The position numbers and the translations under genes are program-made. Below are positions 11,876 to 47,998 of a stretch of 64,000 nt of DNA, piece by piece; the first letter of the stretch is position 1; every line of letters begins with the position of its first letter. Source of the stretch: Clostridiales bacterium GWD2_32_19 (GTDB lineage Bacteria; Bacillota; Clostridia; Lachnospirales; UBA12420). The stretch spans positions 33,566 to 97,565 of the forward strand of contig MGOU01000022.1 of the NCBI GenBank assembly GCA_001795385.1. Direction: 5' to 3'. The notes below the pieces were generated by a model. It was not told the DNA's origin, did no database searches, and saw nothing but the letters and a program-made list of their open reading frames with translations.

Positions 11876-11879
11876 ATCC

Positions 11880-12203: not shown

Positions 12204-12284
12204 TTTCCTCGACCTCCTAATAAATATTATGGACGATGTAGCTTTAATTTATGCAAAAAAAGAGAAAAAGTGTGGTGAAAGCGT

Positions 12285-26009: not shown

Positions 26010-27335
26010 ATGAAAAAGTACTTGAAGATTTCTAGTTTGCTGGGTGTACTCGGGGTATATTTATGGGTAAGGTGTTTCAAGGTACCTTTAAATAATGAGG
26101 TGTTAAATATATCTTACTTTACATATGAGTTTAAGATATGGATTATGGGTTTGCTTATAATTTTATCGTTATTTGCGATAGTACTACTATTAATATCTGC
26201 AGGAAATTTCAAAATAGGTATATTGAAAATAGTTATAGGGATTATTTTGTCCATAGTATTGAATATTAATTTGTTAATAGCGTTAGGGTTCTATGCTATA
26301 AACATGCCTATAGAAGGGAAAGTAGAAGAATACAAGTATAATCTTGAGAAAGTAACGGAAGAAGAGAAAAGTAATTATCTCAATTTATGTGCTAGTAAAA
26401 ATAGTATGTATAAAAGGATAGAAATACTACTAAATAAGAACATAGGTATTCCAGAAAATCTAGTAATGCTCCCACAAGTTAGTGAATATGAGCTAGTAGG
26501 TGATATAGTGAGTTCGTGTAAGGAAAAAATCAAAAAAATAGATGAAGAAGGAATTAACATAGAAAATTATGATAAAGCAATAGAACTATATATATATTAT
26601 AATAATATCGCTAGTAGAATGTTAAAGGTAAAAAATGTTGATAGATTATGGCTTGGTTATATAAAAAGTATTCCGAACAAAACAATGGAAAGTCTAATAA
26701 AAAATCATGAGTCTATACAAAAAGAAGATTTTGATAAGCTGATAAAGATCTGTGAAAGTAATATAAATGTATATAATGATTGTATAAATAATGTTAATAA
26801 TGTAACTAGTCTTATAGCATATAACCCTAAAAATTATGAATATTTAAATGAGATGTGCAATTGGCCTTTATATGATAATAATAAAACTTTAAAAGTAGTG
26901 CATATGATAATAAATAATAGTATTAATAATAATTTGGCAGAGAATTCTAAAATGTACAAACAAATAGAAAAGCAACCGTTTACTAATATGGCTGGTTTTA
27001 CAAATAAAGTGGGTTGGTTTTACGAAAATACGACAGGATTACTAAAGGAATATAAAAGTGATAATGGGTATTATGCACTATCTTTCGGTAGCTTTAGTAT
27101 GACATTTCTTTTAGTTGAACCTGAAAAAAGCAGTAGATTAGCTATTTTGAAATACATTCAAACTGGTAATAAAAGCTTACTTGATGGAAATGTAGCAGTA
27201 CATGAAGATGACGATAAAGTGGTTTTCGAACTTTCGAATGAAAAAGATTATACAACAAAAGAAAACCGTAAAATTGTATTTAATAAAATAAAGCATAACA
27301 TAGAAACTCCAATACTAGGAGGTACACAAAGATGA
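26010..27335 (+). CDS. Hypothetical membrane-anchored protein (N-terminal TM helices plus about 330-aa soluble domain)
   Basis: RBS aggagg. Three or four hydrophobic helices in the first 100 aa. No recognised domain. Confidence 0.6.
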   Translation: MKKYLKISSLLGVLGVYLWVRCFKVPLNNEVLNISYFTYEFKIWIMGLLIILSLFAIVLLLISAGNFKIGILKIVIGIILSIVLNINLLIALGFYAINMPIEGKVEEYKYNLEKVTEEEKSNYLNLCASKNSMYKRIEILLNKNIGIPENLVMLPQVSEYELVGDIVSSCKEKIKKIDEEGINIENYDKAIELYIYYNNIASRMLKVKNVDRLWLGYIKSIPNKTMESLIKNHESIQKEDFDKLIKICESNINVYNDCINNVNNVTSLIAYNPKNYEYLNEMCNWPLYDNNKTLKVVHMIINNSINNNLAENSKMYKQIEKQPFTNMAGFTNKVGWFYENTTGLLKEYKSDNGYYALSFGSFSMTFLLVEPEKSSRLAILKYIQTGNKSLLDGNVAVHEDDDKVVFELSNEKDYTTKENRKIVFNKIKHNIETPILGGTQR

Positions 27336-28666
27336 AAAAAATAAGTAATATATTAAAAAATATTAATACCAAATACGCAAGTAGTTTTATATTATACTAT
27401 ATATTGACAGCGTTTCTTCTTATGGTAATAGGAAGTGCCTTACATGGAATAATCTTTGAATTCAGAATAAATGGAATTGAAAATGATGGTATATTATTAA
27501 ATGTCATAAATGTTACAGGTATATTACTTGCATTTGCATTAGCCTTGAGAATTACCGATAAAACATTCTTTGAAAACGAAGAAACTACAGAAAAAGAGAA
27601 AGAGAACTTACATGATTTTAGGCTCAAACTTATAGTAACTATATTTATAGGTGTAGGGTTACAACAATTTATTGAACTTAATTGGTTAATTGCTAAAGAT
27701 CAAAAAATAGATAGTATACTAGGTAAAAGTGTAGCCCAGTATAATGAATTATACATATTCAGTACATTTTTTATTAAGCAAGTAGTAATTGGTATTGGGT
27801 ACTTTGTAATATATAAATTCATAAAAATTGGAGTGCGAAAAGGAAAAGTAAGAAAAATATTGATTTTACCAGTAATTAATTTTTTAATTCTTGCTGCATT
27901 AAATTTAATTGATAGTCAATATCCAATATACTTAGGGTACTTTAGTGAAGTAAGAACTTATTACATTTTTCTAATAATAGCAGTTGGCATTATATACTCT
28001 GTCACAACAATTAAAGATAATTATGAAATAACTGATATGAAAAATAGATACAAAGAGTTTTTGAATAGCTATACAAAAGGAATATTAATGATGCTTGTAC
28101 CTCTTGTTGCAATGGGTATTATAATGTTACCATTTTATAAGAACGAGGATATATTATCTTGGTTAGTTATTACATTTGTTTATGAGGCAATTATTTACTC
28201 AGCATATGCTTTGCTTTTGAAAATATATAAGTCAATGTTATCAAGATTAATAGGGGTATTCGCATACGGGATAGTACTTACGGTTATATTTACTATAATA
28301 TTTGGAACTCCAGAGCAGTCGCCAATGATTCAATTGTCTAATATAGGAGATACAGAACTTTCGTGGTGTATAGTATATTATATTATTATAATTTTTAATA
28401 GTATAATAGCAAGTATACTGTATGCAAAGAGTAAATGGATAGATAAAAATAAAATAGCACGAATGGCTATATGGATATTAAAAATAATAAATATACTAGC
28501 ACTAGCTACTATGGGCACTATTGCATTAGCGTATGGTTTTAATTATAATAATGTAGTTATGATGATTATTACAGGAATTGTCTTAGTCATAGTTATAGGA
28601 TTACTGGTAGAAATGACAGATAGAAAGACAATTAAAATATTTAATAAAAGTATAAACAATATATAA
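27332..28666 (+). CDS. Hypothetical polytopic membrane protein
   Basis: ATGA start/stop overlap with the upstream gene. At least 10 hydrophobic segments. No recognised family. Confidence 0.6.
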   Translation: MKKISNILKNINTKYASSFILYYILTAFLLMVIGSALHGIIFEFRINGIENDGILLNVINVTGILLAFALALRITDKTFFENEETTEKEKENLHDFRLKLIVTIFIGVGLQQFIELNWLIAKDQKIDSILGKSVAQYNELYIFSTFFIKQVVIGIGYFVIYKFIKIGVRKGKVRKILILPVINFLILAALNLIDSQYPIYLGYFSEVRTYYIFLIIAVGIIYSVTTIKDNYEITDMKNRYKEFLNSYTKGILMMLVPLVAMGIIMLPFYKNEDILSWLVITFVYEAIIYSAYALLLKIYKSMLSRLIGVFAYGIVLTVIFTIIFGTPEQSPMIQLSNIGDTELSWCIVYYIIIIFNSIIASILYAKSKWIDKNKIARMAIWILKIINILALATMGTIALAYGFNYNNVVMMIITGIVLVIVIGLLVEMTDRKTIKIFNKSINNI

Positions 28667-33313: not shown

Positions 33314-34567
33314 ATGATGATAGAAAATTCTAGCGACGAAGCAAATAAAGGCGAAGAAATTAAGCAAAACATGATTGAACCTAAAAAAATCAAAAAAGAA
33401 GCATATTATAATTATTTTATAGGTTTCTTGTCAGCTATATTGGTGATGATTACATTTAACAATATTAATAAAATAATAATTAGTTATGATGCAGACGAGG
33501 TACAATCTGGCAAGGTACAAAATAAATTAAACCTCATTGATAAATACTTGAAAGAATATTATGTAGATAATGTAAATAATGAAAAAGTAGAAGAAGGTAT
33601 TTATAAGGGTATGTTATATGGGGTTGGAGATCCTTATACTAGTTATTTCACAAAAAATGAAATTGACAAATTTACTGAACAAATGTCAGGACAATATGCA
33701 GGGATAGGAGTTGTGGTAGAGACAGACCCTGAGACTAGATTGTTGACAATTACAACAGTGTTTGAGGGAGCACCAGGAGCAAAAGCTGGACTACTAATTG
33801 GTGATAAAATAATAAAAGTAAATGAAGAAGACATAACTTTAATGCCAGTAGAATCAGTAATCCAGAGAATAAAAGGAAAAGCAGGAACAAAGCTTATGTT
33901 AAGTGTACTTAGAGAAACTGAAAGTCTTGACATTGAGCTTGTTCGAAAATTAGTTGAAATACCTACTGTAAAGTATAGGGTTTTAAAAGACAATATGGGG
34001 TATATACAAATAGTATCTTTTGATCAAATCACGATATCTCAGTTTGATGAAGCATTAAAGAGTCTAAAGGAAAAGAATATAAAGTCATTAATAATTGATG
34101 TAAGAAATAATCCAGGTGGCGCACTTGAAACGGTTATTAGTATAGCAGATACAATTTTACCGAAAGGTCTAATAATGTACACAGAAGAAAAAAGTGGGCA
34201 AGGACGTACATATGAATCTGATGAGAGAAGTTTAAATATGCCTCTGGCTGTTTTGGTAAATGAAAATAGTGCAAGCGCATCAGAAGTACTTGCAGGTGCC
34301 ATAAAAGCTCACAAAGTCGGTATTTTAGTAGGAACAAAAACCTTTGGTAAGGGAGTAGTTCAAAAGATATTTCCTCTTTCGGATGGGAGTGCTTTAAAAA
34401 TAACAATATCAAAATATTTCACACCAGATAAGGTTTGCATACAAGGAATAGGTATAGAACCAAATTATACAGTAGAACTACCAAAAGAGATAAAAAATAA
34501 AATATCATTAACTGATAAAGAAGATGTGCAATTACAAAAAGCCATTGAATTGTTGAAGACTAAGTAA
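33314..34567 (+). CDS. ctpA: Carboxy-terminal processing protease (S41) with PDZ domain
   Basis: PDZ (GAPGAKAGLLIGDKI), RNNPGG, SASASEV, TFGKG motifs. Start after ggagg. Confidence 0.9.
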   Translation: MMIENSSDEANKGEEIKQNMIEPKKIKKEAYYNYFIGFLSAILVMITFNNINKIIISYDADEVQSGKVQNKLNLIDKYLKEYYVDNVNNEKVEEGIYKGMLYGVGDPYTSYFTKNEIDKFTEQMSGQYAGIGVVVETDPETRLLTITTVFEGAPGAKAGLLIGDKIIKVNEEDITLMPVESVIQRIKGKAGTKLMLSVLRETESLDIELVRKLVEIPTVKYRVLKDNMGYIQIVSFDQITISQFDEALKSLKEKNIKSLIIDVRNNPGGALETVISIADTILPKGLIMYTEEKSGQGRTYESDERSLNMPLAVLVNENSASASEVLAGAIKAHKVGILVGTKTFGKGVVQKIFPLSDGSALKITISKYFTPDKVCIQGIGIEPNYTVELPKEIKNKISLTDKEDVQLQKAIELLKTK

Positions 34568-34595
34568 CAAATATAGTAATTATTTAACCCCAAGG

Positions 34596-35321
34596 GTGTA
34601 TGGAATGGAAGAACATATAAGTAATATTATATTACAATATAATAAACCATTATTTTTAATAGCATATATAACACTAGTAACTTTTATGTACATGTCTGTG
34701 TACATAAAAACTACTAGTGTTTTTAATTACATAAAAGATATAACAGTTTGCCTAATTGTAGGAATATTTATAAGCATTCTAGGGGTAATGCTTAACTTGT
34801 ATATAATTCCATCAAGAGAATTGCTATTTTTAATTCCTATTATATTATTTTTATCATGCATAAATAAAAGATATGTTTGCTTAGCGTATTCAGGAGCAAT
34901 ATTATGTGTAATGAGCTTTTTGTTTTCGGGTATGCAAATAGATGTTAAAGGTATTATAGGATCAGTAGGAATATTTCATCTGATTGAAGCAATTATGATA
35001 TTACTAAAGACCGACTTAAAACAGTGTAAAAAAGAAGTATGTTGTAAAAATGGAAAGTTGATATCGGTAAATTTTATTGAAAGGTACTGGATGGTTCCAT
35101 TTGCTTTGAATTATTTTGGAGCAATTGTATTACCAATTGGATTTGCATTTGAGTATAAAAACAAAAAGAAAATATATTTTTGTGGAATAGAACTCTTAGT
35201 ATATGCGCTTACTCTTATATTTATATATGAAACGACATTGAAGTTAGACTATATGATATATGTAGGAATATTAGTAATGCCACTAATGCACGAGCTATTT
35301 GTTATTAAAAATAGGTTATAA
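34596..35321 (+). CDS. Hypothetical polytopic membrane protein
   Basis: Six to seven hydrophobic segments, no recognised family. The start is uncertain (GTG 34596 or ATG 34605). Confidence 0.5.
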   Translation: MYGMEEHISNIILQYNKPLFLIAYITLVTFMYMSVYIKTTSVFNYIKDITVCLIVGIFISILGVMLNLYIIPSRELLFLIPIILFLSCINKRYVCLAYSGAILCVMSFLFSGMQIDVKGIIGSVGIFHLIEAIMILLKTDLKQCKKEVCCKNGKLISVNFIERYWMVPFALNYFGAIVLPIGFAFEYKNKKKIYFCGIELLVYALTLIFIYETTLKLDYMIYVGILVMPLMHELFVIKNRL

Positions 35322-35323
35322 AT

Positions 35324-35486
35324 TTAATCTCTTTGGGTTTAATTTCCCGTCGGCTTGCCGCGTTCTTGTCATTGCGAGGAGGTTCTTTCGACGAAGCAAT
35401 CTCGTTTTTGAAAGATGAGATTGCTTCGCAAAAAACGCTCGCAATGACAACATGATACCCGTCGGCTTGCCGCGGGGAGATTCATT
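35324..35486 (+). repeat. GC-rich nested-hairpin dispersed repeat, copy C
   Basis: Differs from copy A by one substitution and one 1-nt deletion. Begins 3 nt after the stop codon. Confidence 0.9.
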
Positions 35487-35529
35487 GGTTATTGTTGTTA
35501 TGAAAGTAATGAAAATTTCTAAAAATGCA

Positions 35530-35558
35530 TTGACAAAGGGTGTATAGTTTGGTAGAAT
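35530..35558 (+). promoter_or_regulatory. Near-consensus extended -10 promoter of the Ca2+-ATPase gene
   Basis: TTGACA, 17 nt, TAGAAT, with upstream TG. Confidence 0.7.
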
Positions 35559-35608
35559 TCTAGTACTATAAGCGTTTTAAAAGGACAAAGAAAGAGGAGA
35601 ATTGTAAC

Positions 35609-38266
35609 ATGGTTAATAATATTGGACTAAATGAAGAACAAGTTGTTGAGTCAAGGAATAAATACGGTAGTAACAGCCTAAGTGAAGTGAAATCCGAAGG
35701 CTTTTGGGACAAGTTAAAGAATAATTTTGGCGATCCAATGATAAGGATTCTGTGTGTAGCACTTGCTATAAATGTAATTTTTGCATTTATGGGACAAGCT
35801 CATTGGTACGAATCTGTAGGAATTGCTATAGCAGTGATATTGGCTACATTTGTATCTACATTTTCAGAATATAGAAATGAAAATGCATTTCAAAAGCTTC
35901 AAGAAGAAGCATCAAGGATTAAATGTAAAGTATTCAGAAGTGGTGAAGTTTTAGAACTTCCTATTGATGATTTAGTAGTTGGTGATGCTGTTATACTTCA
36001 ATCGGGTGACAAAATACCTGCAGATGGAGTATTGACTACTGGAGTGATAAAGGTTGACCAATCTGTACTTAATGGAGAAAGTAAAGAAGCTAATAAAAAA
36101 GTAATGTCTGAAGATTATGTTGAACAAAGCATAGGACTGGATTTTCTTAATGAATATAAAGTTTTTAGGGGAACGGTGGTTTGTTACGGAAATGCAGTAA
36201 TGAGTATAACAAATGTAGGAGATAAAACTGTATATGGAGAGATAGCAAAAGAGCTACAGACAGAAGATGACCGTGATTCGCCATTAAAAGTTAAATTAAG
36301 CAACCTTGCTAATGGTATTAGTAAGTTTGGTTACATAGGAGGTATTTTAATTGCACTTGCATACCTATTCCAAAAAATAGTTATTAGCAATGGATTTGAT
36401 ATTGGTAGAATCGTGGAGTACTCTTCAAATTATATGGTAATATTAAATAATGTTGTTGAGGCTGTAATACTTGCTGTTATAATAATAGTTATGGCTGTAC
36501 CTGAAGGACTGCCACTAATGATTGCGATTGTTTCTGCAATTAATATGGGAAAAATGCTCAAAGATAATGTTCTTGTTCGTAAAATTTCTGGAATTGAAAC
36601 TGCGGGTAGTATAAATATCCTTTTTAGTGATAAGACAGGAACAATTACAAAAGGACAACTTGAAGCTATTGTTTTTGTAGATGGTGAAGGTAAAGAATAT
36701 AAAAACCATTCAGAGGTAGTTGGTGAGCTAGGTAAGCTATTGTCTCTTGGTATACAGTATAATACGGATGCCATGATTACAGGTACACATCCAAATATCA
36801 AAGTAATTGGTGGTAATGCGACTGAGCGTGCTATCATAGGCTTTGTAGCTGGAAAGGGTGGAGAAGTAACAGCAGAAACTAGTAATAAGATACCGTTTAA
36901 CAGTGAAAATAAATACTCAGCTGTCCAAGTGCATGGTGATTATGAATGTACATTAATTAAAGGTGCACCTGAACTTATTATATCAAAATGTTCAAACTAT
37001 TTTGATAATAATGGTAATAAGAAACCTATTACTGATTTCAAAACTATAGAAGGAAAAATAGATAAACTTGCGGAACGTGCAATTAGAGTATTGGCGCTTG
37101 CAGTTAGTGATTGTGAACTTGGAGAATGTAGTTTGCCAGAAGGAGAATGGACATTACTGGGAGTAATCGGTATACGTGATGAAGTTAGACCTGAATCTAT
37201 TTCAGCAATTACTGAGGTACAAAATGCCGGTATTCAGGTGGTTATGATAACTGGTGACAGAAAAGATACAGCAATTGCAATAGCAAAAGAAGCAGGATTA
37301 CTGAAAGATAGTACAGATATTGTTATTACATCAGATGAATTACAACAAATTTCAGATGAAAAACTAAAGAAGATGTTACCTAATATTAGAGTTGTAGCAA
37401 GAGCTTTACCTAGTGACAAGAGTCGATTTGTAAAAATTGCTCAGGAACTAAATCTTGTAGTTGGTATGACAGGAGATGGAGTCAACGACTCTCCTGCACT
37501 CAAAAAGGCTGATGTAGGATTTGCAATGGGTGGTGGAACTGAGGTAGCAAAGGAAGCAAGTGATATAGTTATTATGGATGATAACTTTAGTTCGATTGAG
37601 AAAGCTATACTTTATGGACGTACAATTTTTAATAGTATACGAAAATTTATAATTTTTCAATTAACAATTAATGTTACAGCCGTTATGGTTTCATTTATAT
37701 CGCCACTTTTAGGGCTAGGAAGTCCACTTTCTATCACACAAATTTTATGGATCAACTTAGTAATGGACACACTAGCTGCATTAGCATTTGGTGGAGAGAT
37801 AGCACTTAAGAGATTTATGAATGAAAAACCAAAACGTAGGGATGAAAATATTGTAAGTCCATATATGTGGAGCTCGATATTTGTAGGAAGTACCTGGATT
37901 TTTATAATTAGTATGTTTTTATTATTATCACCTTATGCAGCAACACTATTCCGCTCAAGTGATACAAGTGCTTACTTATTAACTGGATATTTCACTTTCT
38001 TCGTATTTGCAGCAGTGTTCAATGCATTTAATGCAAGAACAGAAAAGATAAATTTATTAGAAAATATTACACAAAATAAAGGTTTTTTAAAGATTATTTT
38101 ATTGATATCAGGAGTTCAATTAATAATGACATATTTTGGAGGCGTAATTTTAAGATGTTATGGACTTTCATTAAACGAATTGTTATTAGTTATAATACTT
38201 GCAATGTCAATTATACCTGTTGATATAATAAGAAAGTTAATTAAAACATCAAAAGAATCAAACTAA
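35609..38266 (+). CDS. P-type Ca2+-transporting ATPase (P2 type)
   Basis: DKTGTIT phosphorylation site, TGDGVNDSPALKKADVGFAMG hinge, VPEGLP in TM4, 10-TM layout. Confidence 0.9.
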   Translation: MVNNIGLNEEQVVESRNKYGSNSLSEVKSEGFWDKLKNNFGDPMIRILCVALAINVIFAFMGQAHWYESVGIAIAVILATFVSTFSEYRNENAFQKLQEEASRIKCKVFRSGEVLELPIDDLVVGDAVILQSGDKIPADGVLTTGVIKVDQSVLNGESKEANKKVMSEDYVEQSIGLDFLNEYKVFRGTVVCYGNAVMSITNVGDKTVYGEIAKELQTEDDRDSPLKVKLSNLANGISKFGYIGGILIALAYLFQKIVISNGFDIGRIVEYSSNYMVILNNVVEAVILAVIIIVMAVPEGLPLMIAIVSAINMGKMLKDNVLVRKISGIETAGSINILFSDKTGTITKGQLEAIVFVDGEGKEYKNHSEVVGELGKLLSLGIQYNTDAMITGTHPNIKVIGGNATERAIIGFVAGKGGEVTAETSNKIPFNSENKYSAVQVHGDYECTLIKGAPELIISKCSNYFDNNGNKKPITDFKTIEGKIDKLAERAIRVLALAVSDCELGECSLPEGEWTLLGVIGIRDEVRPESISAITEVQNAGIQVVMITGDRKDTAIAIAKEAGLLKDSTDIVITSDELQQISDEKLKKMLPNIRVVARALPSDKSRFVKIAQELNLVVGMTGDGVNDSPALKKADVGFAMGGGTEVAKEASDIVIMDDNFSSIEKAILYGRTIFNSIRKFIIFQLTINVTAVMVSFISPLLGLGSPLSITQILWINLVMDTLAALAFGGEIALKRFMNEKPKRRDENIVSPYMWSSIFVGSTWIFIISMFLLLSPYAATLFRSSDTSAYLLTGYFTFFVFAAVFNAFNARTEKINLLENITQNKGFLKIILLISGVQLIMTYFGGVILRCYGLSLNELLLVIILAMSIIPVDIIRKLIKTSKESN

Positions 38267-38331
38267 CTATAAAACTGTAAAATATATTACAGTTCTATAT
38301 AAAAAATCTAAATATAAAAGGAGTGTTAACA

Positions 38332-38913
38332 ATGGCAATAAGCTTACAAAAAGGACAAAAAGTAGATTTGACAAAGTCAAATCCTGGACTTACTAAGATA
38401 GTAGTAGGATTAGGTTGGGATACAAATAAATATGATGGTGGAAGTGCATTTGATTTAGATGCAGCAGCATTTTTAGTTACAGAAACAAGTAAGGTTGGTA
38501 GCGATGGAGATTTCGTATTCTACGGTAATGTAAAGCATACTAGCGAGTCTGTTATTCACTTAGGAGATAATTTAACAGGTGCTGGTGATGGTGATGATGA
38601 ACAAGTTAAAGTTGATTTATCAAAGGTACCTGCTAATATTCAAAAATTATGTTTTACTGTTACTATTAATGAAGGAGAAACACGCAAACAAAACTTCGGA
38701 ATGGTTTCTAATGCATTTATAAGACTTGTTGATGAAGTTAGTAACACTGAATTAATGAGATATGATCTTGGAGAAGAATTTTCTATAGAAACAGCGGTTG
38801 TTGTAGCTGAATTATATAGGAATGGTACTGAATGGAAATTTAATGCTATAGGTAGTGGATTCCAAGGTGGACTTAAAGCTTTATGTGCAAACTATGGAAT
38901 AGATGTAGCTTAA
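38332..38913 (+). CDS. terD: TerD-family stress protein
   Basis: [13 protein letters not shown], Ca2+ motif [16 protein letters not shown]-terminal WKFNAIGSG. Confidence 0.92.
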
Positions 38914-39085
38914 TATAATTATTTAAAATAAAGGCTTTGCTGTGCGACTGTCAAGAAGCAATTGGCAAAGCTTTTACGCTTTACGAAGATAAGAGACCTG
39001 AAAGGTTTTAAAATGAGTTAGAAAAGCTTGAAATTCCATTATTAGATAATAACTGGAAAGCAATAAAAAACAAGGAGGAATAGAT

Positions 39086-39703
39086 ATGTCAATTAGTTTA
39101 CAAAAGGGACAAAAGGTTGATTTAACAAAGGGTAATTCAAGTTTGAAAAGAGTAATGGTAGGTTTAGGCTGGGATGAAGTACCTCAAACTATGGAAAAGA
39201 AGGGATTACTAGGGAGTCTTATGGGCGGAGGAGCAAAAGGTCAAGCAATTGATTGTGATGCATCTGCAATTTTGTGTAATGCTAGTGGAAAGATGAATGA
39301 AAAAGGAGATGTTATTTATTTCAGCAACTTGGCGCATAAAACTGGATGTGTAAAGCATATGGGAGATAATTTAACAGGTGCTGGTGATGGTGATGATGAG
39401 CAAGTATTTGTTAATTTGGCTGATGTACCATCAAATTATGAAAAAGTAGTATTTGTAGTAAATATTTATCAGGCAGTACAACGTAAACAACATTTTGGTA
39501 TGATACAAAATGCTTTTATAAGAATTATTGATGCTGATAATAATGCAGAATTATGCAAATTTAATTTATCAGAAAACTATGATAATATGACATCAATGAT
39601 ATTTGGTGAAATATATCGTTACCAAAATGAATGGAAGTTTAATGCAATGGGACAGGCTACTACAGATGCAGGTCTTTCTGAATTAGTGCAAAAATACAGT
39701 TAA
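39086..39703 (+). CDS. terD: TerD-family stress protein, second paralog
   Basis: [36 protein letters not shown]. Carries an extra Gly-rich insert after the first strands. Confidence 0.92.
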   Translation: MSISLQKGQKVDLTKGNSSLKRVMVGLGWDEVPQTMEKKGLLGSLMGGGAKGQAIDCDASAILCNASGKMNEKGDVIYFSNLAHKTGCVKHMGDNLTGAGDGDDEQVFVNLADVPSNYEKVVFVVNIYQAVQRKQHFGMIQNAFIRIIDADNNAELCKFNLSENYDNMTSMIFGEIYRYQNEWKFNAMGQATTDAGLSELVQKYS

Positions 39704-39804
39704 AACTCTTGATTAAGACAAACAAGTTTTCTGAACCTGTAGTGAATAACACTAAAGATTGGCAAACTTAAAACATATGACAACTTTGGCTGAGAGGGAT
39801 AAAT

Positions 39805-40719
39805 ATGAAAAGATTGAAAAATGCATTGGCGATAAAATGGATTAATTGTTTAAAGAAATATAAAATTAAATACGCGGGTTTAATTTTATTATCAATTTTT
39901 GAAATAGCCATATCTGTAGCACAACCTATATTATTGGGTAAACTTATATATTCATTAACCACCAAACAGTACAACGAAATAATAAGCTTTACTTTATTGT
40001 TATTTACTTTCAAAGCTCTTGAAATATTTGTAAGCGCAATTAAATTTTATTTGTTGCATTACTTGAGAAATATGATAAATGAAATTATTAGGACAGATAT
40101 AGTTGTTAATATGTTAAGAAAGGGAGTTAAGTTACCGATTACTTCAATAAATGAAAGATTAAAAGAAATAGTTGAGATTACAAGAAAAGGTGATGAGATA
40201 ATAGAAGTTGCAATAAAATCTCTGAAACTAATTGTAATAACTGTTATTGTGACAGTAACTACTAATTGGATGATTGGTGGAATTATGCTGTTGTATATGT
40301 TTGTATATTACCTTGGTATTACGGTAATGTCTAATCCTATACAAAAAGATGTAGCTTCTATGAAAACATCGGGAGATCAATATTTTAATAGGATTCATAG
40401 TTTATATGATAACCCAGATTCAGAGGAATTGGGAAAACTTAGGGTTGTTACAAGATTTTTTAGAAAGAGCAGGATAGTTTATAACATAAATTACGATAAA
40501 ATGCTTGTTGTTTCTGGAATAATAGAGACTTTATTTCAATTATTAATATATGGGTCATTAGCAATGATGTATTTTAATAATAAAATATCCATAGACATTG
40601 TTATATCTTGTATAACTTATTTTACAATAATTACAGTAGTGTACAAGGAAATAAGTATGTTCAATATAGGTATGAAGCAACTTAATATATCTTTTGAGAG
40701 AATTAATGAATTAATGTGA
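39805..40719 (+). CDS. ABC-exporter-type transmembrane domain protein without an ATPase domain
   Basis: N-terminus LKKYKIKYAGLILLSIFEIAISVAQPILLGKLI and a 6-TM layout typical of the type I exporter TMD. Ends at ISFERINELM, the usual TMD-NBD junction. No NBD gene is adjacent. Confidence 0.55.
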   Translation: MKRLKNALAIKWINCLKKYKIKYAGLILLSIFEIAISVAQPILLGKLIYSLTTKQYNEIISFTLLLFTFKALEIFVSAIKFYLLHYLRNMINEIIRTDIVVNMLRKGVKLPITSINERLKEIVEITRKGDEIIEVAIKSLKLIVITVIVTVTTNWMIGGIMLLYMFVYYLGITVMSNPIQKDVASMKTSGDQYFNRIHSLYDNPDSEELGKLRVVTRFFRKSRIVYNINYDKMLVVSGIIETLFQLLIYGSLAMMYFNNKISIDIVISCITYFTIITVVYKEISMFNIGMKQLNISFERINELM

Positions 40720-40818
40720 TAGACCAAAGAGATAATCAATAGAGAAAGTGTTAAAGAGCTGTGATAGGCTCTTTTTCTTGAACTAAATAAAAAATATTAT
40801 TATAGGGGAGTGATTTAA

Positions 40819-41574
40819 ATGTTTAATCCAGATTTTTCGAATGCTATAAAGGTTATTGATAGATCAGAAGGCAAAAGTGGTACAGTTTTCGAAGTTATAG
40901 AATATACAAAGCCAAGGGCAGGAGAACAGCTAAGGCAGGTTAGGATATATATAAAAGAGGGTTCGATAATTATGCAATCTGGGGCTCTGCAATTTATGAA
41001 AGGTCAGATAACGATGGATGCAACAGTGAGCGTTGCTACAGCTTTAAAAGGTTTTTTTACTAGTAAGGGAAGTGGTGAGTCTTTGGTTACTCCCAAGTAT
41101 ACAGGAAAAAATGGAGAAATATATCTTGAGCCTACAAATAATTATTACTATGTCTTAGAACTACAAAACGATGAAATAATTCTTGACGATGGATTGTTTT
41201 ATTGTTGCGAAGACAGTATTGCATTATCAGTGCACACAAATACAAATGTTTTGGCGGGGTTATTTTCTGGAGATGGTTTTAGACAACCAAAAATCACTGG
41301 AACCGGAGTTGCGGTGTTAGAAAGTAATGTTCCTTTTGAGGAGATATTAATATATCAATTAAATAATGAAACATTAAAAGTTGACGGAAATTTTGCAATG
41401 GTTGTAAGGGGAAATATTCAAACAAAAATTGAAAAATCATCAAAGTCAATAATAGGTAGTGCCAGAAGCGGAGAGGGTATTTTACAGACATATACAGGAA
41501 CGGGAGAAGTATGGCTCGCACCAGCGAAGAATTATAAACCACTTGATACTTTACTGCTAACGAGGAGCATTTAA
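40819..41574 (+). CDS. AIM24-family (DUF124) protein
   Basis: About 250 aa, beta-rich. Segments IYIKEGSIIMQSGALQFMKGQITMD and GEGILQTYTGTGEVWLAP resemble the TIGR00266/AIM24 family. Confidence 0.6.
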   Translation: MFNPDFSNAIKVIDRSEGKSGTVFEVIEYTKPRAGEQLRQVRIYIKEGSIIMQSGALQFMKGQITMDATVSVATALKGFFTSKGSGESLVTPKYTGKNGEIYLEPTNNYYYVLELQNDEIILDDGLFYCCEDSIALSVHTNTNVLAGLFSGDGFRQPKITGTGVAVLESNVPFEEILIYQLNNETLKVDGNFAMVVRGNIQTKIEKSSKSIIGSARSGEGILQTYTGTGEVWLAPAKNYKPLDTLLLTRSI

Positions 41575-41582
41575 ATGTATAT

Positions 41583-41644
41583 ATGTCAATCAAATTTCAT
41601 AAGTTCAAATTTTGATTGACATGAAAAAACAAAAATGGTACAAT
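41583..41644 (+). promoter_or_regulatory. 12-bp inverted repeat overlapping a near-consensus promoter
   Basis: atgtcaatcaaa (41583-41594) pairs with tttgattgacat (41611-41622). TTGACA 41616-41621, 17 nt, TACAAT 41639-41644, with TG. Confidence 0.65.
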
Positions 41645-41667
41645 AATTTATACGAGGTGTGATTAAA

Positions 41668-42132
41668 ATGTTTGGAATGTTTAAAAGAAAGAGTGAAAAC
41701 GAAAGCAATGAAAAAACAGACACACAGCAAGATACAAAATTACAAACAAGAATAGTTATGGAAAATGCTAAAGCTTCTTTAAAAGAAATAGAAAATAAAC
41801 TATATCAAATTAAAGATAAATATTTATTTTCGAATCTACTTTTGTTTTTATCATATTATAATTTTATAATTGAATTTTACAATAAAAACATGGAAAGTAT
41901 AATTTCAGTAAGAGAGCTGTTATTATTAAAATATATAGATATGATAAAAGATATACTAGCTAATTTTGATGAAATAACGGCTACAGTAGTTCAAAAAAAT
42001 GAACTTCTGAAAGCATTGAAAACTGTAAATGAAAAGTTGAATTCGGCAATTAAGAACATAAAAGAACAAGCAGAAATCGATTTAAGTGTTGACTTAAAGA
42101 CACTGCAAGATTTGATAAAATTAGACTTTTAA
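41668..42132 (+). CDS. Hypothetical coiled-coil protein in the position of xpaC
   Basis: 155 aa from the ATG after gaggtg. Sits immediately upstream of the TelA-like gene, as xpaC does with yaaN in B. subtilis. No confident sequence match seen by eye. Confidence 0.5.
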   Translation: MFGMFKRKSENESNEKTDTQQDTKLQTRIVMENAKASLKEIENKLYQIKDKYLFSNLLLFLSYYNFIIEFYNKNMESIISVRELLLLKYIDMIKDILANFDEITATVVQKNELLKALKTVNEKLNSAIKNIKEQAEIDLSVDLKTLQDLIKLDF

Positions 42133-42157
42133 AAACATCACAAAGGAGTTGTTTGCT

Positions 42158-43345
42158 ATGGGATTTGAGAACTTATTAGAAAATATCGAGGGGGATGAAA
42201 AAAAATCTCTAATAAAAGAAGAAACTAATTCTCTTGAGGTAGTGGAGGTAGTTAAAGAAGCAGAACCTGCTGTACCAGTTGGAACCAAACGAGAGGTGGA
42301 CTTATCTAAGTTTAGTGAGGAAGACAGAGAAAATATAAACAAAATGAAGGATAATATGAGTTTGACTAGTTCTAATGATGTTGCAAGTATAGGTACTGAA
42401 GCTCAAAGTAACATTGCAAAATTTGCAGACGGTCTTTTAGAAGGTGTTAAAACAAAGGACACTGGTGTTGTTGGTGATAATCTTACCACACTACTTACTA
42501 CTATAAAAGGTGTTAATCTAGAAGGATTAAATGGAAATAAATCATTTATATCAAAAATTCCATTTTTAAGATCAATTAGTAATAGTGTAGTAGGTGCGAA
42601 GATAAAACTTGAGAATGTCACTGAGACTGTAGATAATATTGTAGTTGCACTAGACACAGCAAGAAAAGAGTTAATAAGAGATATAAATGTATTAGATGTC
42701 TTATATGATAAAAACCTTGAATACTTACATAACCTTGAGTTGTGTATAGCTGCTGGAGAGCTAAAGTATAACGAACTTTCTGAGACAGTGTTAGTTGAAC
42801 TGAAAAGCAAAGCTAATCAAACTCAAGATATGGTAGATATTCAAAAGTATAATGATTTTGCACAAATGTTGTCAGAAGTAGAAAAAAGAATATATGATTT
42901 AAAATTAAGTAGGGAGATTGCTAGACAGACAATGCCCCAAATACGCATTATCCAAGGTAATGATAAGATATTATCAAATAAGATTCAGACGAGTGTACTT
43001 ACAACCATTCCAATCTGGAAAAATCAAATAGCGTTAACAATATCTTTAAATAAACAAAAAACAGCTTTGGAATTACAAAAGAAAGTTTCGGACACAACTG
43101 AAGATTTATTAAAACAAAATGCTAATATTTTAAAAATGAACTCTATTGAAATTGCAAAAGAAAGTGAAAGAGGAGTTATAAGCATCGAGACATTAAAGGA
43201 AACACACACTAGATTAATTGAAACGATAGAAGAATCTATGAAGATTTATTCAGAAGGTCGCCAAAAACGTCAGATGGCAGAAAAGGAACTTACTCAGATG
43301 GAAGCAACTCAAAAACAAAAACTCCTAGAGCTTAGAGGTAAATAA
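42158..43345 (+). CDS. telA: TelA-family toxic anion resistance protein (YaaN/YceH-like)
   Basis: About 395 aa, all helical. Shows the typical TelA layout, with N-terminal acidic lead-in, LLEGVKTKDTG and a central LELCIAAGELKY segment. Confidence 0.8.
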   Translation: MGFENLLENIEGDEKKSLIKEETNSLEVVEVVKEAEPAVPVGTKREVDLSKFSEEDRENINKMKDNMSLTSSNDVASIGTEAQSNIAKFADGLLEGVKTKDTGVVGDNLTTLLTTIKGVNLEGLNGNKSFISKIPFLRSISNSVVGAKIKLENVTETVDNIVVALDTARKELIRDINVLDVLYDKNLEYLHNLELCIAAGELKYNELSETVLVELKSKANQTQDMVDIQKYNDFAQMLSEVEKRIYDLKLSREIARQTMPQIRIIQGNDKILSNKIQTSVLTTIPIWKNQIALTISLNKQKTALELQKKVSDTTEDLLKQNANILKMNSIEIAKESERGVISIETLKETHTRLIETIEESMKIYSEGRQKRQMAEKELTQMEATQKQKLLELRGK

Positions 43346-43373
43346 GTAGAACGAGATTAATGAAGGTGATATA

Positions 43374-44186
43374 ATGGATAAAAAAGAATGTCTAAATTTG
43401 ATAAATCAACATTTTGAATTACAAAGTTGTATAGCATCATTAAAAAACCCAGATTTAAAATTGAAGAGTCATACCTTCTTTTATAATAATCTTTTTAAAG
43501 CGGTAAAAGAAATAAAGATAATAAGAGTTAAATCTAAAAATCCAAAAGATGATATTAAATTTGATATATATTATGTATCTGATGAATTCGAAGGATTATA
43601 TCATGGATATTTCAGGATAAAGGATGAATCAGATTCGGCAAGTAGGATATTTAAAACTGTAAGTAAGATGTGTACAGATTTGATCGAATATATGTATTAT
43701 GTGTACCAAAACAGTGAATTGCTCAAAATATATTTGATATCTTTAGATATTCAAAATGCAATAGAGCAATGTAATACAAAAGATGTTGATGGAGTATTTG
43801 AAAAAATCAAAAAAAATATATATTCAGAAATTGCAGAATGTGATCAAACTGAACTAGAATGTTCCATTTTAGATAGGTGGTTTAATAGAAAATATATATA
43901 TAACTTTATAATGTTTAACTCGAAATGTTCGGAAATAGTGAAGATGTTTCTACTAAATTTGCTTTCACCTAAGTATTCGAACAATATTTGTATGATTAAC
44001 CAAAATAGTATTATAAAAAATTACATTTATGTAAGTTCAAGTTCGATATATTTTAACGGTAATCATGAACTGAATGTATTTAGTATACTAGATAGTGCTG
44101 TTTCTTTAGAATTTATATTGTTTGTAAAATTTGATTTTAATTTTGAAGGTGGAGTTAATATTGGGAAAACAGTTGATAAAAGGTGA
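43374..44186 (+). CDS. Hypothetical 270-aa protein
   Basis: RBS gaaggtg. No recognised domain. The 3' end overlaps the next gene. Confidence 0.55.
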   Translation: MDKKECLNLINQHFELQSCIASLKNPDLKLKSHTFFYNNLFKAVKEIKIIRVKSKNPKDDIKFDIYYVSDEFEGLYHGYFRIKDESDSASRIFKTVSKMCTDLIEYMYYVYQNSELLKIYLISLDIQNAIEQCNTKDVDGVFEKIKKNIYSEIAECDQTELECSILDRWFNRKYIYNFIMFNSKCSEIVKMFLLNLLSPKYSNNICMINQNSIIKNYIYVSSSSIYFNGNHELNVFSILDSAVSLEFILFVKFDFNFEGGVNIGKTVDKR

Positions 44187-44712
44187 AAAGATAGATATAA
44201 GTAAAATAAATAGTTCTTCTAATAAATTTGAATTAGTTATAACATACAAAAACAATAATGAAAATTCATATGATATCGACACTTTTGTATGTGTATGTGA
44301 AAATAATAATCGAATAAATAAAAAGGAGATTATTTTTTATAACAATGTTGAAAATACTGATAAAAGTATATGCTTTGTGGACTGTTTTACTGATAATACA
44401 GAGAATAAAAAAACATTTCAAATAAATTTAAACAGTGCAAACATTTCAAAACTAATTATTGGGTACTCAATTTATAAAAGTAATCTATGTAAACAAAGTT
44501 CTGCTGATATTACGCTTAAACTAATTAACAGAACACTACAAACAGAAGTGTTCACAATGAGTATGCAAAGTGACATTATAAATAATAATGCAGGTGTTGT
44601 AGGGGAAGTTTACAAATATAAAGATGTTTGGAAGTTTAATGCTATTGAATATAATTCTCCAAATGATTTGATGAGTACAATTAAGACTTTATTTAATGTG
44701 ATTTTATATTGA
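44161..44712 (+). CDS. Degenerate TerD-like protein lacking the Ca2+-binding motif, TTG start
   Basis: LIKGEKIDISK start, YDIDTFVCV, IIFYNN, final VGEVYKYKDVWKFNAIEYN. The GDNLTGxGDGDDE loop is replaced by DCFTDNTENKKT. RBS ggtggag. Confidence 0.65.
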   Translation: MGKQLIKGEKIDISKINSSSNKFELVITYKNNNENSYDIDTFVCVCENNNRINKKEIIFYNNVENTDKSICFVDCFTDNTENKKTFQINLNSANISKLIIGYSIYKSNLCKQSSADITLKLINRTLQTEVFTMSMQSDIINNNAGVVGEVYKYKDVWKFNAIEYNSPNDLMSTIKTLFNVILY

Positions 44713-44725
44713 TAGTTTTATAAAT

Positions 44726-44750
44726 GGGGTCAAGTTGACCCTGTTTTGTT
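44726..44750 (+). terminator. Weak terminator-like hairpin
   Basis: gggtc-aagtt-gaccc followed by tgttttgtt. Confidence 0.45.
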
Positions 44751-44951
44751 ACTATTTTGACAGCAGGTAGGAGATGTTTGTGTAAAGAATAGGTCAGTGT
44801 GTTAACTAAAATAAGTAATTTGTAGAAAATATGTAAAAATAACTATTAGTAAATGTTGTTTTTGGACAAAATGAGAAAAAACTTTTGGTTGATTTTTTAT
44901 GACACTTTAACTATAATAAGATAGTGTCAAAAATTTAATATAGAAATAAAA

Positions 44952-45040
44952 GAGAGATTGCTTCGTACACCCTCCTAGAGGACCCCTATATCTAGGTTTG
45001 CACAATACACTAACCAAGTCTTAGGATGTCGCAATGACAA
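44952..45040 (+). repeat. Disrupted fragment of the nested-hairpin repeat
   Basis: gagagattgcttcg and gtcgcaatgacaa (the right-hand arms of the family) are separated by 62 unrelated nt. Confidence 0.6.
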
Positions 45041-45049
45041 AGAGGGGGA

Positions 45050-45123
45050 AGATAATATTGATAAAATATATTAAATAAAAAGGGATAGTGTAGTATTTAG
45101 TACTATGAATATTTTACACTACC
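45050..45123 (+). promoter_or_regulatory. Conserved 74-nt leader element, copy 1
   Basis: 70 of 74 nt identical to 47997-48070. Internal dyad ggg(a)tagtgta..N..tacactaccc. Ends 23 nt before the start codon. Confidence 0.8.
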
Positions 45124-45146
45124 CTAATAGAAGTGGAGGGATATAA

Positions 45147-45998
45147 TTGGATAAGATAGCAGTAATAGCAGATATACATGGGAATCTGACAGCGCTAGAG
45201 GCTGTAATAGAGGATATAGAGTCAAGGGGAATAGATAGAATATTTTGCCTAGGAGATATGATAGGAATAGGACCTAGTGCGCATGAAGTTTTAAATATTA
45301 TTAAAGACAAATGTGAGGTTGTTATATTTGGAAATTTAGAAAAGTGGCTTGCAGAGGTAGATCTGGGTAAAGAAGACCGTGAACAAGAGAGACAAAGGAT
45401 AATATGGAATAGGTCATTGCTTTCAGAAGAAGAAAATAAGTACATCAAATCTTTGCCTATGATACACGATATGTACATAAGCGGTAGACTAGTTAGGTTT
45501 ATGCATTCATCTCCAGATAATGTTTTTAATAAAACTTATTATATTGATGATGAAACTGATAAGATAAGACTCTTCTTGCCAACTGACAATACATCAATTA
45601 ACAAAATCGCAGATGTTGTTGTATATGCAGATATACATGAGCAATTACTTCAAAATTTTTATCACAGAACACTTGTAAACATAGGAAGTGTTGGAAATGC
45701 AATAGAACTTGTGCTGGATGAAAAATATAATGGAGATAGTAAGGAAACAACAAATGCGATGTACTGTATAATAGAGGGAAGTATTGGAAAAAAAGAGAAT
45801 AAGACAAGTATAGGTTTCCAATTAGTTAGAGTACCATATAATATAGAAAAGGAATTGGAAATATCTTCAAAAAAGAATATGCTTGAATTTGAAGAATATA
45901 AAGAAGAAATAACAAAGGGATTGTATAGAAATCTTAATTATCTAAAAATAAAATATAAGCAGGTAAGGCAGATGCAAGGGAAACGGTATATGCAATAA
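45147..45998 (+). CDS. Metallophosphoesterase (calcineurin-like), TTG start
   Basis: IAVIADIHGN, FCLGDMIGIGP, later GN..and H motifs. Confidence 0.8.
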   Translation: MDKIAVIADIHGNLTALEAVIEDIESRGIDRIFCLGDMIGIGPSAHEVLNIIKDKCEVVIFGNLEKWLAEVDLGKEDREQERQRIIWNRSLLSEEENKYIKSLPMIHDMYISGRLVRFMHSSPDNVFNKTYYIDDETDKIRLFLPTDNTSINKIADVVVYADIHEQLLQNFYHRTLVNIGSVGNAIELVLDEKYNGDSKETTNAMYCIIEGSIGKKENKTSIGFQLVRVPYNIEKELEISSKKNMLEFEEYKEEITKGLYRNLNYLKIKYKQVRQMQGKRYMQ

Positions 45999-46015
45999 AA
46001 ATGAGGTGAATCACA

Positions 46016-47998
46016 ATGCTAGAATTTAAAGTAGTATCAGAATATAAGCCAACTGGTGATCAGCCTCAGGCAATAGAGAAGTTAGCTCAAGGGATAGTTG
46101 AAGGGAAAAAACATCAGGTTTTGCTTGGTGTTACTGGATCTGGGAAGACTTTTACTATGGCTAATGTTATAGAGAAGGTTCAGAGACCAACCCTTATAAT
46201 AGCACATAATAAGACGCTTGCGGCACAGTTGTATAGTGAGTTTAAGGAATTTTTCCCTGAGAATTCTGTTGAGTATTTCGTTAGTTATTATGATTATTAT
46301 CAGCCTGAAGCGTATATGCCACATACGGATACATTTATAGAAAAGGATGCACAGATAAATGATGAGATAGACAAACTTAGACACTCTGCAACAGCGGCAT
46401 TATTTGAGAAGAAGGATGTCATAATTGTAGCAAGTGTTTCATGTATATATGGGTTAGGAGATCCAGAGGATTATTCTAGCTTATCATTATCAATTAGAGT
46501 AGGTATGAAAAAAGATAGGGATGAGATACTGAGAAAACTTGTGGATATACAATATACGAGGAATGATATTAATTTTAAGCGTGGTACATTTAGGGTTAGG
46601 GGTGATGTTGTAGAGATTTTACCCGTATCAGCTGAAAAGAATGCAATAAGAGTTGAGTTTTTTGGAGATGAGATAGAAAAAATATCAGAGATAGAGGTCC
46701 TGACTGGTAAGTTTATTGGTTCAAGAGAGCATGCTCTTATATTTCCTTCTTCACATTATGTTGTAGGCGATGAAAAGATGGAAGCAGCTATAGGAAATAT
46801 AGAAATAGAACTGCAAGAAAGATTGAAAGAACTGAGAGAAAATAATAAATTATTAGAGGCTCAAAGAATCGAGCAAAGAGTGAATTTTGATATAGAAATG
46901 ATGAGGGAACTAGGATACTGTTCAGGTATAGAAAACTACTCAAGACATATGTCGGGACGTGAAGCAGGAAGCACGCCGTATACCCTACTAGATTATTTTC
47001 CAGATGATTATTTGATAATGGTAGATGAGTCGCATATGACTATCCCTCAAGTAAGAGGTATGTATGCAGGCGATAGGGCAAGAAAAGAAAATTTGGTAGG
47101 CTATGGTTTTAGACTTCCTTCAGCTATGGATAATAGACCGCTTAATTTTACAGAATTTGAAAAGAAAATAAATCAGATAATATATGTATCAGCCACACCC
47201 TCAGCGTATGAACACGAAAAGTCAGAGCAAACGGTTGAACAGCTAGTAAGGCCTACAGGGCTTATTGATCCGGTAGTAGAAATAAGACCTATCACTGGAC
47301 AGATAGATGACTTAATAGGCGAGATAAGAAAACGTGTAGAAAAAGGTGAAAAAATCTTTGTAACTACACTTACAAAGAAAATGTCAGAAGATCTTACAGA
47401 TTATATGAAACAAGTAGATATTAGAGTTCAGTACTTGCACTCTGAAATTAAGACTTTAGAGCGTGTTAAAATCATTAGGGATTTACGTACTGATGTGTTT
47501 GATGTTCTTGTTGGGATAAACCTCCTACGTGAAGGTCTTGATGTTCCAGAGGTATCACTAGTTGCGATACTTGATGCAGACAAAGAAGGTTTTCTACGTT
47601 CAGACACTGCATTGATACAAAATATAGGACGAGCCGCGAGAAACATAAATGGTAAGGTTATCATGTATGCTGATAGAATAACGAACTCCATGCAGAGCGC
47701 TATAGAAGAAACGGATAGAAGACGCGAGGTACAAAAAGAGTATAATATTACAAATAATATAACACCTACCACTATCGTAAAAAGGGTAAGAGATATCATT
47801 CAAGCAGCTAAGGTAGCTGAGGATGAGTCTGTTGAAAGTTTAATGAGTGAAGTGAGTAGGATGGATGATGACGAAATAAGGTTGCTTATAGATAGACTTG
47901 AAGAAGACATGAAAGTGGCAGCGGAAATGCTAGAGTTTGAGAAGGCTGCAAAGCTGAGGGATGAGGTTGTAAAACTGAAGAAGCGAGTGAAAATGTAG
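46016..47998 (+). CDS. uvrB: Excinuclease ABC subunit B
   Basis: GVTGSGKTF Walker A, beta-hairpin region [14 protein letters not shown] box, C-terminal UVR domain ([11 protein letters not shown]). Confidence 0.97.

Follow-up and report, generated by a model that had tools for sequence, protein, structure and literature searches.

The 64-kb window considered here (64,000 nucleotides, the whole stretch of DNA that was analysed) belongs to an uncultured bacterium of the class Clostridia, Clostridiales bacterium GWD2_32_19, and the same sequence is also present in JGI, ENA and Logan metagenome assemblies. It contains a Ter/TelA region in which a Ca2+-translocating P-type ATPase gene is followed by genes for two TerD proteins (TerD1 and TerD2), an ABC-like membrane protein, an AIM24/DUF124 protein, a small XpaC-like helical protein, TelA, an orphan protein of 270 amino acids, a third and divergent TerD protein (TerD3) and a metallophosphoesterase. 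This gene content and order had been described in an earlier note made from the sequence alone, and both are borne out on the + strand by Pfam searches, in which the ABC-like and XpaC-like proteins are matched only below threshold and the orphan is not matched at all. The genes for the XpaC-like protein, TelA, the orphan and TerD3 form an operon that is the only conserved unit of the locus and its only new element.

Organization of the four-gene operon

The operon, encoded entirely on the + strand, opens with the gene for the XpaC-like protein (41668–42132; 154 amino acids), which is followed by telA (42158–43345; 395 amino acids), the orphan gene (43374–44186) and the TerD3 gene (44161–44712), and all four products are predicted to be soluble. 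TelA matches PF05816 with 333 bits over its full length (profile positions 2–331 of 332) and TerD3 matches PF02342 with 80 bits. A sigma-70-type promoter on the same strand (41616–41644; TTGACA-17-(TG)TACAAT) precedes the XpaC-like gene; it is the strongest match in the interval 38200–46100, agreeing at 11 of 12 positions with a TG-extended −10 element and a 17-nucleotide spacer, and is nearly base-for-base identical in the closest relative (locus L001; L numbers designate the loci compared). At the other end an intrinsic terminator-like hairpin, called by a terminator scan and absent from the earlier note (44722–44746, + strand), begins 10 nucleotides past the TerD3 stop codon and consists of an 11-pair stem with a T-rich tail. 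Bounded by this promoter and this terminator, the stretch 41668–44712 has the appearance of a four-gene operon complete in itself. The transcription break formerly proposed before the XpaC-like gene is real. The hairpin that had been pointed out after the membrane-protein gene also exists (40753–40779, + strand; AAAGAGC-N8-GCTCTTT and a T run, from direct reading of the sequence), but it is weak and was not called by the terminator scan.

The −35 box of the promoter is overlapped by an operator-like inverted repeat with perfect arms of 11–12 base pairs, ATGTCAATCAAA-N16-TTTGATTGACAT (41583–41622), which occurs a single time in the window. Of the operator-bearing promoter proposed in the earlier note, the strong promoter and the perfect repeat that overlaps it stand, but the repeat is not conserved in relatives, L001 keeping its right arm only. 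An operator shared among the orthologous operons was considered and rejected, no common operator having been found in a comparison with uncertain start codons. Just upstream of the XpaC-like gene of L005 lies a perfect 20-bp palindrome, TGTTATCATATATGATAACA (3220–3260), the sequence of which is unrelated to that of the window palindrome; repressor control may be common to these operons, via differing operators. In L012 (GCA_001282725.1) a divergent Fur-family regulator gene (7795–8229) is found immediately upstream of a stand-alone four-gene operon, a hint that the operon of this genome may respond to metals or peroxide. No riboswitch or other RNA family was matched in Rfam within 34000–46500.

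Beyond the operon terminator, a 430-nucleotide non-coding gap (44713–45146) extends to the metallophosphoesterase gene (45147–45998, + strand; PF12850 and PF00149). The gap contains a promoter-like site (44889–44917) and is locally GC-rich at approximately 44960–45050, and the 5′ region of the gene does not fold better than shuffled sequences (z = −1.5). Lying behind a terminator and this gap, and beside the operon in no other species, the metallophosphoesterase was rejected as a member of the system.

Conservation and variation among relatives

The order XpaC-like protein, TelA, orphan and TerD recurs in each of the 20 distinct loci whose flanks could be used, and short contigs agree with it. 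In a converse survey seeded on TelA, the 13 retrieved loci with a TelA at least 61% identical to that of the window all carry the orphan and the divergent TerD, whereas the four-gene operon is present in none of the 39 loci in which this identity is at most 48%. In such distant loci, the gene upstream of telA encodes a true XpaC in nine out of ten cases tested (65–147 bits). The split in TelA identity, together with the true XpaC encoded upstream of distant telA genes, identifies the four-gene operon as an elaboration of the ordinary xpaC–telA pair that is limited to one TelA subclade of the Clostridia. The pairing of the two genes is thus the normal state of TelA loci. Carriers of the operon include Marinisporobacter, Anaerophilus, Anaeromicrobium, Alkaliphilus and several Clostridium-labelled metagenome-assembled genomes (MAGs). 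At least two of the carriers are cultured strains, among which are Marinisporobacter balticus DSM 102940 and Anaerophilus nitritogenes MJB2.

Ratios of nonsynonymous to synonymous substitution rates (dN/dS) were computed pairwise against L001 and L002, at a dS of approximately 1. They amount to 0.12–0.19 for the XpaC-like protein, 0.09–0.14 for TelA, 0.15–0.20 for the orphan, 0.16–0.24 for TerD3, 0.11 for the ABC-like protein (against the L001 copy), 0.08 for TerD1 and 0.11 for the Ca2+ pump; all of the genes measured are under purifying selection, with values of 0.08–0.24. The notion that the odd genes might be decayed remnants, raised in the earlier note, is ruled out by ratios like those of TelA and the Ca2+ pump, and the lengths of the proteins that they encode are conserved across genomes.

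The neighbours of the operon vary considerably. Among the 20 loci, pairs of TerD genes with Ca2+ sites are found in nine, a Ca2+ transporter in six, Ter biosynthetic genes (ATPgrasp_Ter, PRTase_2/TRSP, StiP/PELOTA_1, C-C lyase and HAD) in ten, AIM24 in four and the ABC-like membrane protein in two; nine loci have the operon by itself, TerD pairs, Ca2+ transporters and biosynthetic genes all being absent from the 8–10 kb around it. In L001 the genes for the XpaC-like protein, TelA, the orphan, TerD3 and the ABC-like protein are followed by a C-C lyase gene on the opposite strand and, beyond it, by those for the pump, TerD, AIM24, TerD and ATP-grasp, the AIM24 being a different paralog that is 30% identical to that of the window. 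Fuller loci (L013, L103 and L104) begin with TerD/AIM24 genes, a C-C lyase gene, a fused PRTase_2/TRSP–StiP/PELOTA gene and a HAD gene, after which come the genes for the XpaC-like protein, TelA, the orphan and TerD. The window looks like a derivative in which the biosynthetic genes have been lost or relocated. The neighbourhood analysis proposed in the earlier note thus found the orphan and the degenerate TerD to be conserved together with TelA and the XpaC-like protein, but no recurrence of the eight-gene block from TerD1 to TerD3.

The organism of the window (L099, Ga0209000_1000914) and an L001-type relative (L007, Ga0209000_1000198) were recovered from one metagenome (3300025011), so that two arrangements of the locus coexist in one community. 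A further block, in L035 (Synergistales bacterium MS502-76, 2725–12576), contains genes for AIM24, a double-TerD fusion and two TerD proteins, followed by ATPgrasp_Ter, PRTase_2/TRSP, StiP/PELOTA_1, HAD and a Ca2+-ATPase. Its pump and TerD share 67 and 72% amino-acid identity, respectively, with those of the window, which is unusually near for another phylum and suggests lateral transfer of the block.

The orphan protein and TerD3

Neither Pfam nor NCBIfam nor PADLOC has a match for the orphan protein; when the 11 members of its family were all scanned with Pfam, isolated single-member matches were the only result, and TerB was not among them. It is a very rare family. Seven members were retrieved when 5.8 billion protein clusters were searched with a word index, and an exhaustive HMMER profile search against 1.84 billion representatives contributed four more clusters of full length, besides two short fragments; at the level of loci, 11 were found in 185,579 species genomes and 12 in JGI metagenomes, and no homolog was present in 2.9 million viral contigs. 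The protein is not named in the family libraries or in the literature searched, a search that did not include the 2012 Ter paper itself.

An AlphaFold2 model built from seven sequences reached a mean predicted local distance difference test (pLDDT) value of 53 and was discarded; the model built from 11 sequences is confident (pLDDT 88.4, predicted template-modelling score 0.86). With the latter, a Foldseek search of the viral library BFVD and of 350,542 chains in the PDB returned no match with E ≤ 0.001, the best TM-score being 0.21. The model thus points to a new fold, provisionally so because the comparison covered the PDB and BFVD and no predicted cellular structures. A relation to TIM barrels was also considered and set aside, since a PDB profile search hit designed repeats only, over approximately 40 residues and with no significant stretch, and was taken as noise. 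Invariant or near-invariant polar residues of the family are Lys24, Asp27, Ser32, His33, Asp59, Thr101, Asp102, Lys173, Asn182, Lys184 and Lys190.

TerD paralogs devoid of the metal site are a known feature of Ter clusters, and TerD3 belongs among them. TerD1 and TerD2 retain the Ca2+-binding motif GDN(R/L)TGxGDGDDE; in every one of the eight aligned members of the TerD3 subfamily (the window protein and seven orthologs) it has been replaced or deleted. The start of the TerD3 gene overlaps the end of the orphan gene by 26 nucleotides in the window, L004 and L005, by 16 in L003 and by ten in L013, and the two genes are at most three nucleotides apart in L012 and L010. This overlap or close spacing in seven loci suggests translational coupling of the orphan and TerD3, presumably at a fixed stoichiometry.

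The XpaC-like protein and TelA

The XpaC-like protein does not reach the length of true XpaC, and the two transmembrane helices found at the N terminus of the latter are missing: hydropathy analysis detected no segment above threshold in four XpaC-like proteins and hydrophobic segments within residues 9–47 in four true XpaC proteins. Its match to PF10112, co-linear with profile positions 40–185, reaches 20 bits, below the cut-off of 29.8, and a co-linear sub-threshold match is also displayed by four of 11 orthologs. Profile comparison with true XpaC using hhalign gave a probability of 46% and an E value of 2e-4 over 142 columns, with a common C-terminal motif. Homology to XpaC is, on these grounds, probable and not proven.

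The xpaC–telA pair has been associated with the cell envelope in several Bacillota. In B. subtilis, xpaC–yaaN and yceCDEFGH belong to the sigma-W regulon (PMC3498285). Deletion of xpaC in E. faecium reduces the minimal inhibitory concentration of daptomycin eightfold and alters the distribution of phospholipid microdomains, effects that require an intact telA, and the pair affects daptomycin binding (PMC6811118). The Listeria telA homolog lmo1967 affects sensitivity to nisin and tellurite, and the pair lmo1966–lmo1967 is induced by a bacteriocin (PMC12791056).

Upstream genes and genomic setting

The Ca2+ P-type ATPase (35609–38266, + strand; 885 amino acids) is of the PMCA/LMCA1-like, Ca2+-translocating type and matches all P-type ATPase Pfam domains. 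It adjoins the TerD pair and not the four-gene operon. The two TerD genes that follow on the + strand, for TerD1 (38332–38913) and TerD2 (39086–39703), encode proteins that match PF02342 with 279 and 247 bits, respectively; TerD1 aligns with Klebsiella TerD (2KXT/2KXV) with 218 bits, the Ca2+ motif included. A Ca2+ transporter (P-type ATPase or Na_Ca_ex) is located beside TerD genes in six of the 20 operon-bearing loci and additionally in L035. TerD genes occur together with a Ca2+-ATPase in huge gut phages as well (PMC12880540), a pairing that by analogy echoes the one in the window. The recurrence of Ca2+ exporters beside Ca2+-binding TerD pairs makes a stronger case for these clusters handling cytoplasmic Ca2+. 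Directly upstream of the ATPase gene, and not at that position in L001, a 238-residue protein with approximately seven hydrophobic segments is encoded (34605–35321). As a candidate for a cryptic TerC it was dismissed, having no similarity to TerC, no Pfam match at E ≤ 1 and none in NCBIfam.

The ABC-like membrane protein (39805–40719, + strand; 304 amino acids) has long cytoplasmic loops and six hydrophobic segments, arranged 2+2+2, and stops at residue 304, with the helix that usually leads into the ATPase domain. Its alignments to PF00664 (25.8 bits for a cut-off of 28, E of 1e-5) and to NCBIfam models are weak and co-linear, and it has no sequence match in the PDB. An ATPase domain (PF00005) is neither fused to it nor encoded alongside, in the window, where the next gene is that of AIM24, or in L001, where its gene lies after that of TerD3 and is followed by a gene on the opposite strand. 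In 5.8 billion clusters the protein has three entries, corresponding to two distinct loci, namely the genome of the window and the L001 relative. Of the ATPase-less ABC membrane domain described in the earlier note, the lack of an ATPase is correct, but the domain match is sub-threshold and the protein occurs in these two genomes only.

The AIM24/DUF124 protein (40819–41574, + strand; 251 amino acids, soluble) matches PF01987 with 135 bits and the PDB entries 1YOX and 1PG6, and its gene is separated by one gene from that of TerD2. AIM24 is found beside TerD genes in L001, L035, L103 and L104. Among the 22 closest orthologs in species genomes, 21 are without Ter genes in the 10 kb around them, and the single Ter-linked one belongs to a Synergistales MAG whose cluster of TerD, biosynthetic and pump genes is complete; in Marinisporobacter and Anaeromicrobium, which carry the operon, the ortholog is on a different contig. 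AIM24 was put forward in the earlier note as a non-canonical member, but it is not new to Ter clusters: PMC5822837 cites Anantharaman, Iyer and Aravind (2012) for AIM24 as a frequent neighbour of TerD and for one class of ter clusters with AIM24 among their genes.

The genes flanking the Ter/TelA region are all core housekeeping genes, with ftsH, iscS/nifU, mnmA, a PBP5-type carboxypeptidase gene, ftsEX and genes for an M23 peptidase and a CtpB-like protease upstream, and uvrB, genes for an HD hydrolase and an ABC-F protein, cdaA/ybbR and glmS downstream, and nothing among them suggests a prophage, a plasmid or a defence island. The GC content is low and even over the window (26–37%). No PADLOC model of known defence systems matches any of nine locus proteins (E ≤ 0.01). 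Among the called genes, which cover approximately 63 of the 64 kb, none has a Pfam match to TerC (PF03741), TerB (PF05099) or the Ter biosynthetic families, and the absence of TerC and TerB formerly reported for the vicinity of the cluster thus extends to all called genes of the window. Elsewhere in the window, two tandem overlapping open reading frames (26010–27335, 441 amino acids, and 27332–28666, 444 amino acids) are without a meaningful Pfam match and are flanked by the PBP5-type carboxypeptidase gene and a gene for an MFS transporter.

Discussion

The Ter/TelA region of the window is very probably a composite of known Ter parts and one conserved four-gene operon. We consider it likely that the region represents a reduced form, specific to its lineage, of the Ter/TelA membrane/ion stress-response system already known from the Bacillota, with three separable parts. 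The physical interactions and physiological roles of all of the locus proteins are those that we infer, and the mechanistic sketch that follows is, taken as a whole, a tentative one that may well not hold. The first part, comprising the Ca2+-exporting pump, TerD1 and TerD2, would probably act as a buffer or sensor of cytoplasmic Ca2+, for instance once the membrane has been damaged. The second consists of the accessory proteins AIM24 and the six-helix ABC-exporter-like membrane protein without an ATPase, which could anchor soluble Ter proteins to the membrane in the two genomes that encode it. The third is the operon of four soluble proteins with its own promoter and its own terminator. In it, the XpaC-like protein and TelA would serve membrane maintenance in the manner of the xpaC–telA pairs of Bacillus, Listeria and Enterococcus, responding to envelope stress and affecting lipid organization, and the orphan and translationally coupled TerD3 may act as a stoichiometric adaptor pair between TelA and the Ca2+-binding TerD proteins. 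In relatives this adaptor pair might also be linked to the Ter pathway for a nucleoside-like metabolite, the biosynthetic set of which the genome of the window would have lost or relocated.

The closest known counterpart of the operon is the xpaC–telA pair (xpaC–yaaN of B. subtilis, lmo1966–lmo1967 of Listeria and the pair of E. faecium), in which a small helical protein is likewise encoded directly before a full-length TelA and with which the window would be expected to share a role in envelope stress. On the other hand, the upstream protein of the window has only some 150 residues, no transmembrane helices and a weak match to XpaC, its promoter is sigma-70-type in appearance and not of the extracytoplasmic function type, and the orphan and the TerD without a Ca2+ site, which are always added in operons of the window type, are missing from the classical pair. 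With the yceCDEFGH operon of B. subtilis, a member of an envelope-stress regulon, the region shares TerD paralogs and TelA in one neighbourhood, but yceF (TerC) has no counterpart in the window, the gene order differs and the XpaC-like protein and the orphan are found in the window. Enterobacterial terZABCDEF has TerD-family paralogs in common with the window, which encodes three PF02342 proteins; in contrast, the window lacks TerC, TerB and a plasmid or island context and has TelA and the XpaC-like protein instead. The ABC-like protein shares with the half-transporters of ABC exporters (PF00664 with PF00005) the 2+2+2 helices and a C-terminal end at the usual ATPase junction, but has neither an ATPase domain nor a partner ATPase gene.

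Ter clusters with a biosynthetic module offer a further comparison. The paper of Anantharaman, Iyer and Aravind from 2012 reportedly covers TerD paralogs that bind metal and others that do not, the biosynthetic module, and TelA in membrane-linked complexes. The window shares with such clusters multiple TerD paralogs with and without metal sites, as well as an AIM24 gene beside TerD, as in the 'group I' clusters cited in PMC5822837. The full gene set is found in L004, L013, L035, L103 and L104; the window, in contrast, has no biosynthetic genes, TerC or TerB in its 64 kb.

Several observations weigh against reading the region as a reduced form of the known system with the mechanism outlined above. 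The absence of TerC is established for the 64-kb window alone. Two of the protein assignments are weak: that of XpaC combines a sub-threshold Pfam match, an hhalign probability of 46% and no transmembrane helices, and that of the ABC-like protein a sub-threshold score (25.8 bits against 28) and no PDB sequence match. The palindrome at the operon promoter has no conserved counterpart upstream of the orthologous operons, in a comparison hampered by uncertain start codons. The operon proteins are all predicted to be soluble, so that a membrane role would need a partner or peripheral binding, and the solitary operon in nine of the 20 loci implies that its coupling to the other Ter parts may be optional or wrong.

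The earlier note had taken the whole eight-gene block for one distinct, undescribed envelope- or ion-stress system in which new members replace TerC and TerB. That its genes lie closely spaced on one strand and are under purifying selection, that L001 holds the same families within 13 kb and that 64 kb contain neither TerC nor TerB would be in keeping with such a system. The neighbourhood survey nevertheless largely refutes it: the genes of L001 are ordered differently, with another AIM24 paralog (30% identity), and biosynthetic genes are kept there as well, nine of 20 loci carry the four-gene operon only, the ABC-like protein is confined to two genomes, and AIM24, with 21 of its 22 closest orthologs not Ter-linked within 10 kb, has a connection to TerD that is already in print, as cited in PMC5822837. 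A single eight-gene system is accordingly improbable. Even more poorly do the data fit a chance juxtaposition of decaying genes, in which, for example, an ABC transporter would be truncated, one TerD degenerating and one open reading frame spurious. The degenerate motif of TerD3, the missing ATPase and the lack of orphan homologs beyond a narrow clade might be read in this way, but dN/dS values of 0.11 for the ABC-like protein, 0.15–0.20 for the orphan and 0.16–0.24 for TerD3, the conserved protein lengths, the confident AlphaFold model of the orphan and a strict gene order in 20 loci make this explanation scarcely credible, and the selection and conservation data refute it.

Two other explanations concern function. 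The operon could provide sensing or regulation for the Ter pathway of a nucleoside-like metabolite, with the orphan as a small-molecule receptor in the role proposed for TerB, signalling via TerD to TelA. It lies beside Ter biosynthetic genes in ten of the 20 loci, its XpaC-like gene follows a HAD gene in L013, L044, L102–L104 and L107, TerB is present in no Pfam-annotated locus with the operon, and the conserved polar residues of the orphan would suit a binding site. The idea nonetheless derives from adjacency alone, and the window and nine other loci have no biosynthetic gene near the operon, the window none in 64 kb, which leaves it an unlikely proposition. Enterobacterial ter operons confer resistance to phages and colicins, and the locus might by extension be an anti-phage or abortive-infection system. 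A link between Ter operons and phage inhibition is made in the literature (PMC8123226), and huge gut phages carry TerD genes and Ca2+-ATPases (PMC12880540). However, no PADLOC model matches the nine proteins, no orphan homolog was found in the 2.9 million viral contigs, the flanks are housekeeping genes (ftsH, iscS, ftsEX, ctpB, uvrB, cdaA and glmS) with no defence island or prophage, and the GC content is uniform across the region. Nothing in these results supports the phage relation that had been suggested as possible, and a defence role appears very improbable.

Conclusions

What appeared to be an atypical system consists mostly of known Ter parts reshuffled, from which one compact, strictly conserved unit can be isolated. 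The new element is the extension of the xpaC–telA pair by the orphan and a metal-site-less TerD, which is rare and strictly conserved. It is conceivable, if doubtful, that the orphan, as a new fold paired 1:1 with the TerD devoid of a Ca2+ site, constitutes a Ter coupling device that replaces TerB, senses the nucleoside-like product of the Ter pathway or another stress ligand, and controls membrane maintenance of the TelA/XpaC type.

Ter and TelA proteins are widespread and have been linked to tolerance of tellurite, phages, colicins, nisin and daptomycin. The orphan adds to the Ter repertoire a protein family without a recognizable fold, and the four-gene unit provides a simple system for asking whether TelA acts as part of a complex with TerD-fold proteins. 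Should the orphan and TerD3 indeed act as a coupling device, this small unit of four soluble proteins, present in cultured Clostridia, would offer a tractable entry to the function of Ter and TelA.

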